Shown here one piece after another: positions 3,392 through 47,252 of a stretch of 64,000 nt of DNA. The first letter of the stretch is position 1. Every line of letters starts with the position of its first letter. The DNA lies in NCBI GenBank assembly GCA_040751775.1, contig JBFMGD010000002.1:22731-86730 (forward strand), given 5' to 3'. A model generated the notes under the pieces. That model saw nothing but the letters and a program-made list of their open reading frames with translations. It searched no databases and had not been told where the DNA came from. Source of the stretch: Bacillota bacterium. GTDB lineage: Bacteria > Bacillota > Dethiobacteria > DTU022. The translations under genes were made by a program, and so were the position numbers.

Positions 3392-4510
3392 GTGGTGCGC
3401 AAAGTGCTCAGAATTGTGGGGACGCTTCTGGGAGCAGGTCTTGGCGTATATTTATTTTTATATATCGGCCTTGTTTCAATATTTATTACCGCCATCGGTA
3501 GTCCCGTTGCCGTTCCCCCTCCCATCGGTTATTCTACCGCCGGTGGGGCCGTCGGTGGTGTGCTTTTTGGGATGATCTTTTATCTGGTTACACCTGTCCT
3601 GATTAACTTTTTTGAACGGGTTGTAGCCTGGTGCGATGGGAAACTTAAAGCTGTGCCGACCCAGGATATCGTGCTAGTTGTTTTCGGATTGATCCTGACC
3701 CTGTTAATGGGTCTGCTGCTCAGCGTTTTTATCAACCGGATCCCCGTATTCGGCATCTATATCTCTCTCGTTCTTACCTTAATCATTGTCTTTGTCGGTG
3801 TGCGATTTGTACTCAACCGTAAGGATGAATTTTCTTTTCTCACCTCTTTTTTCAGCCGTGGTGGTCGCAGCGCCGTAGCGGCGGATAACGAGGTCTTTAA
3901 AATATTGGACACCAGTGCGATTATCGACGGCCGGATTGTTGATATCTGCAAAACCGGCTTTTTGGAAGGGGTTATCGTGGTAGCCGGCTTCGTGTTGGAG
4001 GAGCTGCGCCATATCGCCGACTCTCCTGATCTGTTGAAGCGCAACCGAGGTCGGCGCGGCCTGGATATTTTGAACAAGATCCAGAAAGAGATGGATATTC
4101 CGGTTCAAATTTATGAAGGAGATTTTGAAGAGCTGGCTGAAGTGGACAGCAAACTGGTTCGCCTGGCCAAGGTAATCAACGGCAAGATTGTCACCAATGA
4201 CTTCAATTTGAACAAGGTTTGTGAACTCCAGGGAATATCTGTCTTAAACATAAATGAACTGGCAAATGCCGTTAAACCGGTAGTTTTGCCCGGGGAGGAA
4301 ATGACGGCGCAGATCATAAAGGATGGTAAAGAAGCCGGCCAGGGAGTGGCTTATCTGGATGACGGGACGATGGTGGTTGTAGAAGGCGGTAGAAGGCATA
4401 TCGGAGAAACGATCGAGGTTCTGGTAACCAGTGTATTGCAGACAGCAGCCGGGCGGATGATCTTTGCCAAGCCGAAAACTGCCGCTGAAAGATTTTCCGG
4501 AGTTAAATAA
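3392..4510 (+). CDS. yacL: PIN/TRAM domain membrane protein (YacL-like)
   Basis: Four N-terminal TM helices, a PIN domain (ILDTSAIIDGRI...) and a C-terminal TRAM-like domain (GETIEVLVTS). GTG start follows RBS AAGGAGGTG. The position between carD and ispD is conserved. Confidence 0.75.
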   Translation: MVRKVLRIVGTLLGAGLGVYLFLYIGLVSIFITAIGSPVAVPPPIGYSTAGGAVGGVLFGMIFYLVTPVLINFFERVVAWCDGKLKAVPTQDIVLVVFGLILTLLMGLLLSVFINRIPVFGIYISLVLTLIIVFVGVRFVLNRKDEFSFLTSFFSRGGRSAVAADNEVFKILDTSAIIDGRIVDICKTGFLEGVIVVAGFVLEELRHIADSPDLLKRNRGRRGLDILNKIQKEMDIPVQIYEGDFEELAEVDSKLVRLAKVINGKIVTNDFNLNKVCELQGISVLNINELANAVKPVVLPGEEMTAQIIKDGKEAGQGVAYLDDGTMVVVEGGRRHIGETIEVLVTSVLQTAAGRMIFAKPKTAAERFSGVK

Positions 4511-5196
4511 TGCATGCAGCAGCGATTATTGCCGCTTCGGGTCAGGGCCGGCGCATGGGGAGCCCGGTCAGAAAGCAATATCTGATGTTGGATGGCCTAC
4601 CGGTCCTGGCCCGCACCGTGAATGCATTTCTTGAACATGGCGGCATTTCCCAGGTTGTTTTAGTAGTTCCTCAAGGTGAAACCGGTCAAGTGCGAAAGAT
4701 CCTGAAGCCCTTTTTGTCTCTGGATAGTTTGACTTTGGTCGAGGGAGGGAGGCGCCGTCAGGATTCTGTTTTTAACGGCCTCCAGGCGGTTGACCGGGTA
4801 GCGGAGTTAATCTGTATCCACGACGGAGCCCGTCCTTTGATCACGGTAAAACTGATCGCAGCGGTTTTGGAAGCCGCTGTTCAATGGGGTGCCGCGGTGC
4901 CTGTTGTGCCGGTGACCGATACTCTTAAAGAAATTACCGTGGACGGGCTGATTAAGCGGACCATTTCCCGTGACTGCCTGCACCGCGCTCAAACCCCCCA
5001 GGTTTTTCGCCAGGAATTAATCCGGGAAGCATATCGAAAGGCGGCTTTACTCGGTATTGAAGCCACAGATGACGCCTATTTGCTGGAGCTGTTGGGGCAG
5101 ACAGTGTTTACTGTTGCCGGCGACTATGCCAATATTAAAATAACCTGCCCGGAAGACTTGACAGTGGCGGCTGCTTTGCTTAAGGAGGGGCGATAA
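4510..5196 (+). CDS. ispD: 2-C-methyl-D-erythritol 4-phosphate cytidylyltransferase
   Basis: N-terminal AAIIAASGQGRRMG motif of the IspD family. The start overlaps the yacL stop (TAATG), and it is followed by ispF. Confidence 0.85.
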   Translation: MHAAAIIAASGQGRRMGSPVRKQYLMLDGLPVLARTVNAFLEHGGISQVVLVVPQGETGQVRKILKPFLSLDSLTLVEGGRRRQDSVFNGLQAVDRVAELICIHDGARPLITVKLIAAVLEAAVQWGAAVPVVPVTDTLKEITVDGLIKRTISRDCLHRAQTPQVFRQELIREAYRKAALLGIEATDDAYLLELLGQTVFTVAGDYANIKITCPEDLTVAAALLKEGR

Positions 5197-5675
5197 TGCT
5201 GCGTGTCGGTATCGGATACGATCTGCACCGGTTGGTGGAAAATCGTGACCTTATCCTGGGCGGTGTAAAAATACCTTTTCCGTTGGGATTGGACGGGCAT
5301 TCGGACGCCGATGTGCTGGTGCACGCGTTGATAGATGCTTTACTGGGCGCGATTGGCCTTGGCGATATCGGCCGTCATTTCCCGCCCGGCGAGGGCCGTT
5401 ACAGAGCTATTTCGAGCCTGATTTTATTAAACGAAGTGAAGAAACTGCTGGACCGCGATCAGTGGCTGCTCGGAAATGCCGATCTGATCATTATCGCTGA
5501 AGCGCCCCGGATGGTTCCGTATACCGCGGCCATGGTCAAAAACATAGCCTCAACTTTGGGTGTTTCGGAAAACCGTGTTTCAGTTAAGGCTACCACAACC
5601 GAAGGGGTGGGCGCCTGCGGCCGCGGTGAAGCTGTCGCCGCCCAGGCGGTGGTGCTCCTGGAGCGGTCCGCTTAA
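5196..5675 (+). CDS. ispF: 2-C-methyl-D-erythritol 2,4-cyclodiphosphate synthase
   Basis: MLRVGIGYDLHRL...GHSDADVLVHALIDALLGA is canonical for IspF, at 159 aa. It is start-stop coupled to ispD (ATAATG). Confidence 0.9.
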   Translation: MLRVGIGYDLHRLVENRDLILGGVKIPFPLGLDGHSDADVLVHALIDALLGAIGLGDIGRHFPPGEGRYRAISSLILLNEVKKLLDRDQWLLGNADLIIIAEAPRMVPYTAAMVKNIASTLGVSENRVSVKATTTEGVGACGRGEAVAAQAVVLLERSA

Positions 5676-5732
5676 ATCGCCGGGATCTGTAAAGAATTCA
5701 CCCGCTTGGTCGCACCAGGCCGCCGGATTTTG

Positions 5733-5762
5733 TTGACAAAAGAAATTAGTCCTGTATATAAT
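5733..5762 (+). promoter_or_regulatory. Sigma-A promoter for the cysE-cysS operon (TTGACA-18-TATAAT)
   Basis: Near-consensus -35 and -10 hexamers lie in the AT-rich stretch 5733-5762 upstream of the T-box leader. Confidence 0.55.
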
Positions 5763-5764
5763 AA

Positions 5765-6040
5765 ATCTAATTTAATAGCCAAAAAGCGATGAACAGGAAA
5801 GTAAGTTTACGGCCGCTCCCAGAGAGGGGTTCTTCATTAAGCTGCAAGGAACTCCGAGACCGGCGTTAACTGAAGTGCACCTGGGAGCAGATGTCGTGAG
5901 CGGTTAGTGTGAGCGGCTTACGGGTTTTCCCGTTATAGAACTGATCGAGCGGGGTGAAACAATTTGCCCAAACAGAGTGGAACCGCGGTTAGCGCCGTCT
6001 CTGTGTCTTCAAACACAGGAGACGGTTTTATTATTTCTAT
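5765..6040 (+). promoter_or_regulatory. T-box riboswitch leader (likely tRNA-Cys responsive) with intrinsic terminator
   Basis: AGUA and AGAGA stem-I elements are present. The T-box consensus AACAGAGTGGAACCGCGG lies at 5971-5988. A terminator hairpin CCGTCTCTGTG...CACAGGAGACGG plus U-tract (5995-6035) follows immediately. A candidate UGC specifier occurs in GAAGUGCACC. The leader sits directly before cysE-cysS, which are classically T-box regulated. Confidence 0.65.
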
Positions 6041-6066
6041 TAAGAGATAGGGGAATCAAGATCAAA

Positions 6067-6735
6067 ATGTTCAAAAGGATTGGGCAGGATATCAAGGCGG
6101 TCCTGGATCGTGACCCAGCCGCGAAAAGCACCCTGGAAGTGTTGTTATGCTACCCGGGAATCCATGCCATGCTCTATCACCGGGCGGCTCATTTTTTATA
6201 CCGCCGCGGTTTTGTGCTGTTGTCAAGACTGATCTCCCAGCTATCCCGCTTTATTACCGGGATCGAGATCCATCCCGGGGCGGAAATCGGCAGCGCCCTT
6301 TTCATCGATCACGGCATGGGGGTGGTGATTGGTGAAACCACTGAAGTGGGCGAAAACGTTACCATCTACCAGGGAGTAACCCTGGGCGGCACCGGTAAAG
6401 AGAAAGGCAAGCGACACCCGACTGTGGGTGATCATGTGGTCATCGGCGCCGGCGCCAAGGTACTTGGGCCGATTGAAATCGGCGCCGGCGCCCGGATCGG
6501 CGCCGGTTCGGTTGTCCTGCAGTCAGTGCCGCCCGGTTCAACGGTAGTCGGTATTCCCGGCCGGGTGGTATTTTACAAAGGTGAAAAAGTGGCTTCAGTA
6601 AACCTCAATCACACCGACCTTCCCGACCCGGTTGCCGAGGTGCTTAACCGGTTGCAGGATCAAATTGAACAGCTTCGCTTACAGCTGGAAGAACTGGAGA
6701 ATGGAGTGTGCAGCAGTGGCCATAAAGTTTTATAA
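6067..6735 (+). CDS. cysE: Serine O-acetyltransferase
   Basis: N-terminus [19 protein letters not shown] and left-handed beta-helix hexapeptide repeats ([21 protein letters not shown]...). The start lies after the T-box terminator; the track's extension from 5977 overlaps the leader and is rejected. The 3' end overlaps the cysS start. Confidence 0.8.
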
Positions 6736-33666: not shown

Positions 33667-34035
33667 ATGATTCAAAATGAAACCATCTTAAATGTAGCCG
33701 ATAATTCCGGTGCGAAAAAGGTTTTATGCATCAGGATTTTAGGAGGCTCCAGGCGTAGAGCCGGTCATGTCGGTGACATTATTATCGCCTCGGTTAAAGA
33801 GGCGACACCCGGCGGGGTAGTAAAAAAAGGTGAAGTGGTCCGGGCGGTGATCGTTCGCACACGGAGCCGCATGAACCGCAGGGACGGTTCGCACATCCAT
33901 TTTGACGATAATGCAGCCGTGATCATCAACGAACAGAATAATCCCAGGGGTACCCGGATTTTCGGGCCCGTGGCACGGGAGTTGCGGGAGAAAGAGTTTA
34001 TGAAGATAGTATCCCTTGCTCCCGAAGTGATCTAA
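33667..34035 (+). CDS. rplN: 50S ribosomal protein L14
   Basis: [18 protein letters not shown] canonical. ATG 33667 follows GGAGAGAG; the track's N-terminal extension is rejected. Confidence 0.95.
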
Positions 34036-44479: not shown

Positions 44480-45318
44480 CGCATGTCTATATGCCGGGCA
44501 CTCCTTTTGCCGCGACTGCGCTGCGCGGGGTAACCCTCGCTATCGAGCGCGGTTCTTGCAGCGCGCTGATCGGTCCCTCCGGTTCCGGCAAATCTACCCT
44601 GATCCAGCATCTGAACGGCTTGCTCAAGGCTACCGCCGGCCGGGTTGTTGTCGATGGACGGGCAGTCGGCGAAGATCGCCAGGAAATGCTTAAGCTGCGC
44701 CGCCGTGTCGGATTGGTTTTTCAGATGCCGGAACAGCAGTTTTTTGCGGAAACCGTCTATGATGAAATCGCGTTTGCGCCGCGCAACATGGGCTGTAATC
44801 CCGGGGCGGTGGAAGCACGGGTGAAGCAGGCGTTGAACCAGGTCGGGCTTGATTACGGCAAACTCAAAGACCGCTCGCCTTTTCATCTCAGCGCCGGGCA
44901 GAAACGACTGACAGCGGTGGCGGCGATCCTGGCGCTCAGGCCGGAGGTGCTGATCATGGATGAGCCCACAGCCGGGTTGGATCCGGCCAACCGGCAAAGA
45001 TTGCACGATTTGTTAAAAACATTAAACCGGGAAGCCGGATTAACCATTCTAATTGTCACGCATGATCTTGACCAGGCCGCCGCCCTGGCGGACCGGATCC
45101 TGGTTTTGAACGACGGCCGCCTGGTGATGTCCGGTCCGCCCGCGGAAATACTTACCCGGGGGGCCGAGCTGCGGCGCCTGGGTCTGGCGCTGCCCCTGCT
45201 CAGTGAAATCATGCATGGGCTGAGCGAACGGGGGCTGCCCGTAAACACAGCCGTTTTTTCACTGGATCAGGCACGCCGGGAAATCAACCGGGTGCGAAAG
45301 CAGGGTGCAACTTTATGA
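44455..45318 (+). CDS. ecfA2: Energy-coupling factor transporter ATPase EcfA2
   Basis: Second ABC ATPase (GPSGSGKST, LSAGQKRLTAVAA, LIMDEPTAGLD); overlaps the ecfA1 3' end. Confidence 0.9.
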   Translation: MFIRTEELTHVYMPGTPFAATALRGVTLAIERGSCSALIGPSGSGKSTLIQHLNGLLKATAGRVVVDGRAVGEDRQEMLKLRRRVGLVFQMPEQQFFAETVYDEIAFAPRNMGCNPGAVEARVKQALNQVGLDYGKLKDRSPFHLSAGQKRLTAVAAILALRPEVLIMDEPTAGLDPANRQRLHDLLKTLNREAGLTILIVTHDLDQAAALADRILVLNDGRLVMSGPPAEILTRGAELRRLGLALPLLSEIMHGLSERGLPVNTAVFSLDQARREINRVRKQGATL

Positions 45319-46112
45319 GCCGCAATATAACCCTGGGCCAGTACCTGCCCGGCGATACTTTCATGCACCGGCTCAATCCCCGGTTTAAATTGTTGTCCCT
45401 GCTGTTCGTCCTGACAGCGCTGTTTTGGTTGAAAACTTTTACCGGTATGGGTATCCTGCTGCTCCTGTTGATCTTGCTAACCGCCGCTGCCCGGGTGCCG
45501 TACCGCTACCTGCTGCGCGGGCTGCGCCCGATTCTTTACATTATCCTCTTTACCCTGGTGATCTACCTTTTTTTCACCAAGGGGGGGGTAGTGCTGCTGC
45601 GGGTCGGTTCGGTTACCATCGAGCAGGCCGGTTTGTTTGAAGGGGTATTTATTATTGCCCGGCTGATCGCCCTGGTTACCGCTTCGATCCTGGTTACGCT
45701 GACCACAACTCCCTTAGCCTTAACCCACGGCCTGGAATTTTTCCTGGCCCCTTTTAAGTTGATTCGTCTGCCGGTCGACGAGATCGCCATGATTATGATG
45801 ATCGCCTTGCGTTTTATCCCCACATTGATGGAAGAAAGCCAGCGCCTGATGCGCGCCCAGATGGCCCGCGGGGCTGACTTTGAAACCGGCAACATTTTTC
45901 GTAAGGCGCGCAACCTGACGCCGCTGATCGTGCCTCTCTTTGTCAGCGCCTTCCGCCGGGCCGATGAACTGGCCCTGGCCATGGAAGCGCGCGGCTACCG
46001 CATCGGCGCCCGGCGCACCCGCATGCGTGAAGAGACCGTCACCTGGCGCGACTGGATCGCGGTGACTGCCCCGGCCGCCCTCCTGGCCGCGGTAATTATC
46101 TATGCTCTCTAA
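45315..46112 (+). CDS. ecfT: Energy-coupling factor transporter transmembrane protein EcfT
   Basis: Multi-TM CbiQ/EcfT family protein of 265 aa, start-stop coupled to ecfA2. Confidence 0.88.
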   Translation: MSRNITLGQYLPGDTFMHRLNPRFKLLSLLFVLTALFWLKTFTGMGILLLLLILLTAAARVPYRYLLRGLRPILYIILFTLVIYLFFTKGGVVLLRVGSVTIEQAGLFEGVFIIARLIALVTASILVTLTTTPLALTHGLEFFLAPFKLIRLPVDEIAMIMMIALRFIPTLMEESQRLMRAQMARGADFETGNIFRKARNLTPLIVPLFVSAFRRADELALAMEARGYRIGARRTRMREETVTWRDWIAVTAPAALLAAVIIYAL

Positions 46113-46148
46113 GGAATACCTTTAAGCTGCGCCAGAATTCTTTTTCCA

Positions 46149-46242
46149 GAAGCATGGGGACGGTTCTTTTGCTTCCTTAACCTATTGCCATGAAAGATTG
46201 CCCTGAGATAAAAAGGAAGCAAAAGAACCGTCCCCATGCTTC
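46149..46242. repeat. Perfect 30-bp inverted repeat (arms 46149-46178 and 46213-46242) with a 34-nt loop
   Basis: GAAGCATGGGGACGGTTCTTTTGCTTCCTT and its exact reverse complement AAGGAAGCAAAAGAACCGTCCCCATGCTTC, read directly from the sequence. No U-tract follows. Confidence 0.85.
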
Positions 46243-46286
46243 CCATACATTATAAACAGCTAAGTTCTAAAGATAGGGCAGAAATA

Positions 46287-46469
46287 ATGGTCACAACGGC
46301 CCATTGGATGGTCGCCGTGGATTGTCGATCTAATAAGCATTTAGTCCTGGTATATGGCTTTAAGGATTTTGACATCGATGAAGATACAACCTTAAAGCAT
46401 GGAGATACCTTAAGTTCCTATTTTTTTGTGGGTTTAGAGATCGCGGTAGACGAGATATTTGGGATTTAA
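46287..46469 (+). CDS. Orphan small ORF in an AT-rich island (hypothetical, ~60-77 aa)
   Basis: ORF 46236..46469 (internal ATG 46287 is more plausible). GC content is visibly lower than the flanks. No strong RBS and no recognisable family. It begins inside the right arm of the 30-bp inverted repeat. Confidence 0.3.
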   Translation: MVTTAHWMVAVDCRSNKHLVLVYGFKDFDIDEDTTLKHGDTLSSYFFVGLEIAVDEIFGI

Positions 46470-46511
46470 GCGGCCATATTATACCGGTAGGCCAAGAACA
46501 GGGAGCATATC

Positions 46512-47252
46512 ATGCAGAACATTCGCCTAGAAATAACCTATGACGGTACAGCTTACAGCGGTTTTCAGATCCAGGAGAACGCGCCCACGATCCAGGGGGA
46601 GTTGGAGCGTGCCCTGGTTACTATCTATAAACAGAAGGTGCGTCTGATCGGGGCCGGCCGCACCGATGCCGGTGTGCATGCCCGGGGACAGGCGGCTCAT
46701 TTCATCGCTCCTTTTACTGTGCCGCTTGAGCGGCTGCCCGCTGCGCTTAATTCACTGCTCGGTTCAGATATCGTGGTTACAGATGCGGCAGCTGTTTCAC
46801 CGGACTTCCATGCCCGCCACGATGCCAAGCGAAAACTCTACAGTTATACTTTAGACCGGGCGCTTTACCCCCGGGTGATGCTGCGTCGTTTCAGTTTGCA
46901 CTATCCCGAACCGTTGGATCTTGAACGTATAGTGGAAGCAGCCTCTCTTCTGGAAGGGAAGCACGATTTCCGTGCTTTCCAGGCCGCGGGTAGCGCGGTC
47001 CGGGATACGGTGCGCACGCTGCACCGGGTGGAGTTGCGAAATCTGCAGGACGAACAGCTGTTGAAACTTTTTTTTGAGGGAGACGGCTTTCTCTACCGGA
47101 TGGTGCGCTTGCTTACAGGGAGCCTGCTCAGGGTGGGCGCGGGGAAACTGGACCGGGCCGATCTGGCTGCGGCGTTGAGAGGTCAAAACCGCGCCGCGGC
47201 CGGCCCGACCGCCCCGCCGCACGGGCTATGCCTGGAACGGGTTGTCTATTGA
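46512..47252 (+). CDS. truA: tRNA pseudouridine(38-40) synthase
   Basis: MQNIRLEITYDGTAYSGFQIQ...IGAGRTDAGVHARGQ, with the catalytic Asp in GRTDAGVHA. Conserved position after ecfT. Confidence 0.9.
   Translation: MQNIRLEITYDGTAYSGFQIQENAPTIQGELERALVTIYKQKVRLIGAGRTDAGVHARGQAAHFIAPFTVPLERLPAALNSLLGSDIVVTDAAAVSPDFHARHDAKRKLYSYTLDRALYPRVMLRRFSLHYPEPLDLERIVEAASLLEGKHDFRAFQAAGSAVRDTVRTLHRVELRNLQDEQLLKLFFEGDGFLYRMVRLLTGSLLRVGAGKLDRADLAAALRGQNRAAAGPTAPPHGLCLERVVY

Follow-up and report, generated by a model that had tools for sequence, protein, structure and literature searches.

Between the genes ecfT and truA, the stretch of Bacillota DNA analysed here (the window, 64 kb of contig JBFMGD010000002.1, to which every window-wide absence below refers) carries a spacer of 399 nt with ~42 % GC, compared with ~55-60 % in its flanks. 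The spacer contains an exact inverted repeat whose left arm, GAAGCATGGGGACGGTTCTTTTGCTTCCTT, occupies 46149-46178 and whose right arm, the reverse complement, occupies 46213-46242; the arms are complementary at 30 of 30 positions and enclose a loop of 34 nt. The hairpin is predicted to fold with extreme energies: as RNA, -67 kcal/mol for the + strand and -77.5 for the - strand (z about -7), and as single-stranded DNA (ssDNA), -35 kcal/mol (z -12.5). No arm match arose in 100 dinucleotide-preserving shuffles of the window, and a search allowing up to three mismatches found no further copy of either arm within it. An open reading frame (ORF) of 77 aa, 46236-46469, starts inside the right arm. 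A preliminary description of this DNA had pointed to the perfect repeat with its 34-nt loop, to the lower-GC ORF that starts in the right arm without a ribosome-binding site, and to an insert of about 400 bp in a normally tight junction. All three were borne out, the same junction measuring 44-223 nt in relatives. We report that the hairpin is very probably a non-autonomous, transposase-less doublet of a mobile repeat, which lies beside the decayed 3' end of a Uma2 gene and represents a lineage-specific insertion scar.

Each arm of the hairpin is one ~29-nt unit that is itself a small palindrome, (G)GAAGCA-N-GGGGACGGTTCT-NN-TGCTTCC, in which a co-varying stem of 7-9 bp, usually GGAAGCA/TGCTTCC, surrounds an invariant 12-nt loop, GGGGACGGTTCT. 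Scanning one genome per prokaryotic species with the 20-mer GGGGACGGTTCTTTTGCTTC returned at least 117 matching stretches. Among the matches listed, the hosts were Clostridia (Pelotomaculum, Syntrophomonas/Syntrophomonadaceae, Desulfosporosinus, Desulfotomaculaceae, Oscillospiraceae, Acetivibrio) and Bacilli (Neobacillus, Mesobacillus, Niallia, Metabacillus, Cytobacillus, Oceanobacillus, Virgibacillus, Aquibacillus, Alteribacter). The copy-number check proposed in the preliminary description therefore gave a divided answer: the window holds no other copy of the hairpin, whereas its unit is multi-copy in many other genomes. In 862 kb of fetched loci there were 291 occurrences of the 10-mer loop core GGGACGGTTC, where 1.6 were expected; 147 of the copies had not been seed-selected. 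A lone exact match to this core inside long ORFs of the window (33881-33890), which has no flanking unit stem, is most likely due to chance, with 0.12 expected per window.

The stems of the unit vary in sequence and stay complementary, as in GATGCA/TGCATC, GAATCA/TGATTC, GTGTCA/TGACAC, GTGAACA/TGTTCAC and TGGGACA/CGTCCCA. We counted covariation in 129 distinct units that had not been chosen by their stem sequence. Stem cells were paired in 73.9 % of cases, compared with 64.8 % in shuffles (0/500) and 39-53 % when the partner was slid, and cells with a double change numbered 153 against 76 in shuffles. One unit alone folds weakly as ssDNA (-3.6 to -5.5 kcal/mol).

The units are found as singlets, as tandem arrays and as inverted pairs, and 88 % of them are intergenic when ORFs of at least 110 aa, which cover 79 % of the DNA, are taken as a proxy for genes. 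The inverted pairs have a strong polarity, with 65 in the '-> <-' arrangement and one in the opposite. Their spacers have a median of 6 nt and reach at least 30 nt in 21 % of doublets, and perfect 30/30 arms occur in 9 % of inverted pairs. Set against these figures, the window copy is a typical doublet whose spacer is rather long and whose arms are unusually fresh. With respect to genes, doublets are scarce in divergent regions (4/89), and singlets are oriented with the preceding gene in 55 cases compared with 20 in the other orientation. A run of at least five T within 9 nt follows 28 % of singlets, compared with 18 % in a mirrored control.

Published TIRYT genes, which are flanked by inverted repeats with the motif GGGGWSAS, prompted us to look for transposase ORFs near the unit. 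All ORFs in unit-bearing loci were screened with the sequence of an Escherichia coli RAYT (a tyrosine transposase associated with REPs, short for repetitive extragenic palindromic sequences), which served as a lead only; the claims made here rest on Pfam and NCBIfam. Three ORFs adjoining units matched Pfam Y1_Tnp (E about 1e-14) and, with NCBIfam NF047646 (cutoff 80), the family named 'REP-associated tyrosine transposase', gave scores of 83.4, 80.2 and 78.3 bits. Each is bracketed by inverted units, and the three share 55-59 % identity. They carry the motifs NHVHLL (HUH) and RYIHQNPVKAG (the region of the catalytic Tyr), and their nearest solved structure is E. coli TnpA-REP, 4ER8. The transposases are 255-265 aa long and end in a conserved C-terminal tail, GISQRQAARILGVSPNLIFKA, which gave the helix-turn-helix (HTH) family HTH_23 in 5/5 cases and HTH_28 in one, all under the Pfam gathering scores.

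Because these first loci had been selected by the unit, we also made the reverse test on 80 metagenome loci picked by transposase homology alone, counting cores with at most two mismatches to GGGGACGGTTCT within 400 nt. A unit lay within this distance in 50 of the 55 loci whose transposase identity was at least 53 %, and units stood on both sides in 29 of the 45 loci having two-sided sequence. In the usual layout of an element, the transposase has a '+' unit upstream, at 56-110 nt, and a '-' unit downstream, at 21-50 nt. In total, the transposase-selected loci contained 166 core matches in 206 kb, compared with about 15 expected. Transposase homologues at 40-45 % identity showed the same loop on entirely different stems (TCGACACA/TGTGTTGA, TGGGACA/CGTCCCA), and a stem variant was common to both ends of one element. 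Flanking direct repeats of 120 elements and doublets averaged 2.61 nt against 2.68 nt in a mismatched-flank control, so there were no target-site duplications; the window doublet has a 3-nt CCA on both sides, which is within chance. As far as can be judged from these sequences, the unit makes up the two terminal inverted repeats (TIRs) of ~1-kb elements that encode a predicted RAYT-like Y1/HUH transposase.

Several copies of the unit have surroundings of their own. At L027:4420-4550 in Neobacillus cucumis, at least four head-to-tail units with an exact period of 37 nt (GGAATCAC-GGGGACGGTTCTTTTGCTTC-TTTTTTGGA) are followed by an inverted partial copy; this array is a tandem mode of amplification, unlike the doublets. 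In Pelotomaculum sp. UBA10960 and a relative (L026, L033, L037, L064, L074, L080, L090), the unit is followed by the same sequence of ~100-200 nt, CTTGAAAATAACTGTACAGC..GTTCAGC.CACAGAGCGAATCC..AAAATGCAGGTGCGAATTCATTCGCAC, whose copies are 74-88 % identical and stand beside unrelated genes. The seven loci had no match in Rfam at gathering thresholds, and the shared sequence is one of two things: a bigger composite repeat that incorporates the unit, or a second element with the unit as its target. The flanks of units in L037, L044, L068, L012, L098 and others frequently contain short tandem half-sites of the stem (GAAGCA[N]GGAAGCA.., or CTTCTCTGCTTCTCTGCTTC), which suggests slippage or repeated partial insertion at the unit borders. 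Many copies of the unit lie at contig ends, where it breaks assemblies.

The ORF to the right of the hairpin had been described as belonging to no recognisable family. This did not hold, and the profile search that had been suggested for it led to the Uma2 family (PF05685/DUF820) of putative endonucleases. Neither the 77-aa ORF nor a spurious 45-aa ORF that the hairpin creates on the - strand (46109-46246; MGSMGTVLLLP...KQKNRPH...) gave anything significant against Pfam or PHROGs, and a word-indexed protein search with the 77-aa ORF returned no match. An exhaustive HMMER search of 1.84 billion representative proteins, in contrast to these negatives, found three short proteins with 58-64 % identity over ORF residues ~27-76. 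One of them, P0121 (64 % identity, E = 4.3e-8), matches Pfam Uma2 at profile positions 91-171 of 172 (E = 1.2e-11) and is named 'Uma2 family endonuclease, partial [Syntrophomonas sp.]' at NCBI. The fourth match, a 2744-aa RTX repeat protein, is probably compositional. In BLASTP the ORF reached 29/42 identities; over the searches, its identity to P0121 is 64-69 %. A profile built from twelve members of the subfamily matched the window frame over 46311-46460 at positions 77-124 of 124 (E = 1.8e-11), and the last ~50 residues of the ORF are 58-69 % identical to the C-termini of the Syntrophomonas-type Uma2 subfamily. Weaker Uma2 homology extends in the alignment back to about 46260, beside the right arm. 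The fragment was not detected by Pfam's own Uma2 model of ~170 positions.

Compared with Uma2 proteins, the ORF retains only the last ~40 %. It lacks the N-terminal half and with it the upstream part of the nuclease core, and an internal deletion has removed ~8 residues at the conserved K..Y..GV.E.W motif. It has no Shine-Dalgarno sequence, and its first ATG lies in the hairpin stem. The 77-aa ORF is absent from a collection of 5.8 billion proteins that does contain the EcfT of the same contig, which indicates that no annotator called it, and we estimate the chance of such an open frame in 400 nt of 41 % GC at p about 0.3. Read from these alignments, the ORF is a decayed 3' pseudogene remnant and not a working member of the family. 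A further candidate for the AT-rich tail, a decayed Y1 transposase, was rejected, as all scores were below 0 bits. The Uma2 gene was probably acquired horizontally, and its homologues sit in variable accessory contexts. As to whether the ORF recurs beside similar hairpins, we found no systematic linkage between the Uma2 subfamily and the unit, with one other case in 1.1 Mb. At L205:2450-2910 and L206:1950-2400, a 119-aa Uma2-like gene homologous to the window remnant lies in a perfect 18-bp inverted repeat, GTCAAGGGGACGTTTTGT / ACAAAACGTCCCCTTGAC, which appears to be a related unit of the GGGGACG type whose loop tail is different. The predicted 149-aa protein P0127 joins a Ribosomal_L5 domain to a Uma2-like C-terminus and probably goes back to the insertion of a Uma2-like fragment into a ribosomal-protein operon of another genome, in parallel to the window.

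Table 1. Features at the ecfT-truA junction, with positions in the window.
Feature	Position	Strand	Support or remark
ecfT, T component of an energy-coupling factor transporter; left boundary of the insert	45315..46112	+	Pfam CbiQ, E = 1.2e-45
36-nt spacer from the ecfT stop codon to the hairpin	46113..46148	.	carries TTTAAGC at 46122-46128, recurring at 46464-46470
Left repeat unit (arm 1), GAAGCA-T-GGGGACGGTTCT-TT-TGCTTCC; REP/TIR-like unit of a Y1-transposase family	46149..46178	+	family consensus, stem covariation, left terminal repeat of transposase elements
Loop between the two units, 34 nt, not conserved in the family	46179..46212	.	
Right repeat unit (arm 2), reverse-complementary to arm 1 at every position; the arms form a '-> <-' doublet, REPIN/MITE-like	46213..46242	-	orientation as at the two ends of full-length elements
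3' remnant (pseudogene) of a putative endonuclease gene of the Uma2 family (PF05685/DUF820), most of the 77-aa ORF	46260..46469	+	HMMER, BLASTP, subfamily HMM
Native truA leader, CCATATTATACC at 46474-46485 conserved with relative L118	46470..46511	+	spacer comparison
truA, tRNA pseudouridine synthase A; right boundary of the insert	46512..47252	+	Pfam PseudoU_synth_1, E = 9.6e-40

The window EcfT is 100 % identical to NCBI MEW5783734.1 ('MAG: Bacillota bacterium'), encoded on a contig of 117 kb, and the next relatives share 74-78 % EcfT identity. Comparison of the junction in relatives, as had been proposed, showed that the insert is missing there: the hairpin was absent in 5/5 relatives examined, and their ecfT-truA spacers measured 44, 62, 93 and 223 nt. 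The last ~45 nt before truA (CCATATTATACC...) are common to the window and L118/L119, which places the extra DNA of the window between the ecfT stop codon and about 46474. In L118 the junction (L118:3799-3860) contains a consensus promoter, TTGACA-17 nt-TATTAT. The window has kept the -10-like TATTAT (46477-46482) and has no -35 element left; through the insertion, truA may thus have lost a promoter of its own and come to depend on read-through. The two copies of the 7-nt direct repeat TTTAAGC bracket the doublet together with the Uma2 remnant and have an imperfect extension (TTTAAGCTGCGCCA / TTTAAGCGGCCA). Deleting one copy and the intervening DNA yields a relative-like spacer of ~57 nt. The pair may be the microhomology junction of a single block insertion, which with an estimated chance p of about 0.06 is suggestive at best.

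In relatives, the surroundings of truA are a hot spot of insertion: L121 has an RHH-PIN toxin-antitoxin pair between truA and rplM (3599-4233), and L119 has an IS4-type DDE transposase directly after truA (4743-6452). In L123 the 223-nt ecfT-truA spacer (3799-4021) contains degenerate unit-like motifs (GGGACGGTCC.., GGGGGCGGTTCT), and an intact unit with a different stem (GAGTCAAA/TTTGACTC) is located at L123:1144, between rplQ and ecfA, which indicates that the repeat family struck the same operon independently.

Both unit ends of the window doublet are in their native orientation with only 34 nt and no gene between them, which makes it an 'empty' element of the REPIN type or of the miniature inverted-repeat element (MITE) type. 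The 34-nt loop has no similarity to the sub-terminal sequences of full-length transposase elements. By analogy with REP/REPIN-RAYT and IS200/IS605 systems, the doublet would have been placed in trans by a Y1/HUH transposase acting on single-stranded hairpin DNA, a route that is consistent with the lack of target-site duplications and the existence of singlets. In many Bacillota, the unit has also spread across intergenic DNA as singlets, tandems and '-> <-' doublets. At the window locus, the doublet and the Uma2 remnant have probably enlarged the ecfT-truA spacer from about 50-60 to 399 nt. Since ecf and truA are co-directional and the spacer has neither a terminator nor a full promoter, the 30-bp stem is probably transcribed. 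In a read-through transcript of ecf and truA it could, judging from REP elements in general, stop 3' exonucleases and protect the upstream mRNA, or be cleaved by RNase III. Nothing points to a selected function, and any such consequence is most likely incidental. This junction of a conserved housekeeping operon needs no annotation as a gene, small RNA or regulator; the 30-bp stem upstream of truA can be noted as a possible read-through barrier or RNase III site.

Several observations weigh against this account of the hairpin as a mobilised doublet. The six-frame translation of the window contains no homologue of the Y1 transposase, and the window has no second copy of the unit. We infer mobilisation by the transposase from their association in other genomes. 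The unit has no GTAG-type guide tetranucleotide, and the positions 5' of the stem carry at most 0.2 bit. As its invariant part is the loop and not the foot of the stem, the REP mechanism may not apply to it as it stands. The co-orientation of singlets with the preceding gene hints at some selection or tolerance at the RNA level. Finally, the nearest relatives, at only 74-78 % EcfT identity, are too distant to put Uma2 insertion, truncation and doublet insertion in order.

The preliminary description had offered a structured small RNA, a long terminator or a protein-binding palindrome as possible identities of the hairpin, and none of these received specific support; there was no Rfam match, U-tract, terminator or promoter call. 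We regard it as unlikely that the hairpin is mainly a functional RNA in the ecfA1A2T-truA transcript, that is, a terminator, attenuator, 3'-end stabiliser or RNase III site that uncouples ecf from truA. Its very stable RNA fold on either strand and the co-directional flanking genes would suit such a role, as would the family-wide trends described above, namely the 55:20 bias of singlets towards the orientation of the upstream gene, the scarcity of doublets in divergent promoter regions and the excess of T runs after singlets. REPs in E. coli also act as mRNA stabilisers (PMC3733652, PMC6006769). However, the stem is followed by no U-tract on either strand, and a scan of 45900-46700 called no terminator-like site and found no promoter in the window spacer. 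Against Rfam 15 at permissive E-values, the best match of the insert was mir-373 with 22.3 bits, compared with a gathering score of 69. The hairpin is also missing from the junction in all five relatives, and the sequence is accounted for by a mobile repeat in which the loop, and not the context, is conserved; an effect on RNA would be a by-product or a later co-option.

The probable origin of the doublet as mobile DNA had been foreseen in part, as a MITE or transposon-end remnant. Its arms are indeed the terminal repeat of a transposase element and belong to a multi-copy family, but it is not a classical DDE-type MITE. A classical MITE would be an internally deleted DDE-type insertion sequence (IS) that moves by cut-and-paste through its TIRs and makes target-site duplications. 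Two perfect 30-bp TIRs around a short interior, the CCA on both sides and the many copies of the family agree with this model, which we nevertheless consider highly improbable: the genes bracketed by the repeats are Y1/HUH and not DDE, single and tandem units are common and are not a product of paired-TIR cut-and-paste, and flanking direct repeats do not exceed the control, the CCA of the window being within chance. There is equally little chance that the AT-rich ORF (60-77 aa) represents a complete small gene gained by horizontal transfer, for instance a toxin, with the hairpin as its regulatory or mobility signal. In favour of such a gene, a frame of 77 codons stays open in a low-GC segment, and relatives have received a toxin-antitoxin pair and a transposase next to truA. 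Yet the homology covers only the last ~40 % of Uma2, with the N-terminal half missing and an internal deletion of ~8 residues, and the first ATG lies in the stem with no Shine-Dalgarno sequence before it. Open frames of this length are not rare, and the protein collection has no entry for it. Of the toxin-like cargo that had been suggested, the foreign origin of the DNA is probable; what remains is the truncated 3' end of a Uma2 gene and not an intact small gene.

The system most similar to the mobile repeat proposed here is REP/REPIN-RAYT (TnpA-REP) of E. coli and Pseudomonas, from which the structure 4ER8 derives. Both consist of short, overwhelmingly extragenic palindromic units that occur as singlets, clusters and inverted doublets forming long hairpins (REPINs/BIMEs). 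Both have a cognate Y1/HUH gene bracketed by units (the REPtron; here in other genomes, not in the window) and make no target duplications, and the present transposases score at or near the NF047646 cutoff with TnpA-REP as their best PDB match. Their ability to cleave and rejoin ssDNA is predicted from the HUH and Tyr motifs. The present unit differs from REPs in that it has no GTAG / GT[AG]G tetranucleotide at the foot of the hairpin and in that its 12-nt loop GGGGACGGTTCT is invariant on a variable stem. The present transposase is ~100 aa longer, ends in an HTH-like tail and belongs to Gram-positive hosts. Whereas REP families are usually genus- or species-specific, the present loop spans two classes of Bacillota.

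In their arrangement, the elements also resemble TIRYTs (TIRtrons), RAYT-like genes flanked by inverted repeats with GGGGWSAS that are not canonical REPs (Di Nocera et al. 2013, PMC3733652; Quentin et al. 2018, PMC6006769). In these accounts taken together (PMC3733652, PMC6006769, PMC5581495), the TIRs of some genomes make up moderately abundant families, whose repeats are single, dimeric or grouped. Genes of the TnpA-Y1 subclass 2.1 were reported to have no REP-like secondary structures alongside (Quentin et al. 2018, PMC6006769), and among RAYTs only groups 2 and 3 were associated with abundant repeats, with Group 1 occurring in Clostridia and having low-abundance flanking 16-mers (Bertels et al. 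2017, PMC5581495). In common with the TIRYT, subclass 2.1 and Group 1 systems, the present elements have a RAYT-like gene inside terminal inverted repeats. The published proteins are long with a C-terminal HTH; the present ones are likewise long and end in an HTH-like tail. The HTH types expected of TIRYT proteins are Bac_DnaA_C / HTH_23 / HTH_28, and the matches of the present tails, to HTH_23/HTH_28, are sub-threshold. The present unit begins with GGGGACGG, which agrees with GGGGWSAS at 7/8 positions and has an invariant G instead of A at position 7. What sets the present elements apart from these published systems is that the TIR forms a hairpin of its own, whose stem co-varies, and that it is highly amplified.

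The IS200/IS605 family (TnpA Y1; IS608, ISDra2; PATE/MITE derivatives) shares with the present elements the HUH Y1 transposase (Y1_Tnp), hairpin-forming ends and the lack of target duplication. Its ends, however, are sub-terminal, non-identical hairpins, whereas the present ends are inverted copies of one unit; in addition, the NCBIfam IS200 equivalog scored 16.7 bits here against a cutoff of 55, and there is no tnpB gene. The neighbouring ORF resembles Uma2 (PF05685 / DUF820) in its C-terminal ~50 residues and differs from it by its truncation and internal deletion and by escaping the Pfam model.

The core sequence, searched on either strand, appeared in no relevant paper of the literature searched and only in unrelated ones, and a search for RAYT together with Firmicutes yielded nothing relevant. 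The portion of the supplements of Quentin 2018 (PMC6006769) that was covered contained none of the queried Bacillota taxon names. The Bacillota-wide repeat family therefore appears to be undescribed in the literature searched. While the feature in the window is locally ordinary, the part of wider interest is the family, a loop-specified, RAYT-associated repeat. We tentatively propose, and hold it to be somewhat short of probable, that the family is an undescribed REPIN-like population across Bacilli and Clostridia, in which the invariant 12-nt loop GGGGACGGTTCT on its co-varying stem is the recognition element of a clade of long, HTH-bearing RAYT-like proteins. If this were true, the Group 1 / subclass 2.1 / TIRYT class, which was reported without REP-like hairpins and REPIN populations, would amplify hairpin repeats after all. 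Recognition would then be specified by the loop instead of by the foot and a guide tetranucleotide, and the REPIN-RAYT paradigm would extend to Gram-positive bacteria. Should loop-specific recognition hold, cultivable hosts such as Mesobacillus and Neobacillus would offer a compact, sequence-defined pair of ssDNA hairpin and HUH enzyme for mechanistic study.

With the hairpin removed, the insert gave only chance matches to all fetched loci in BLAST and tblastn, and the insert had no BLAST match in plasmids. For annotation, the consensus GGAAGCA-N-GGGGACGGTTCT-NN-TGCTTCC is of practical use as a key: it points to a RAYT-like transposase system of Bacillota that is not in the surveys compared, and it flags spurious ORFs through MGTVLLLP / KQKNRPH-type peptides. 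Wherever the unit occurs, annotation artefacts with MGTVLL / QKNRP-type peptides can be predicted, as in the 45-aa ORF of the window.

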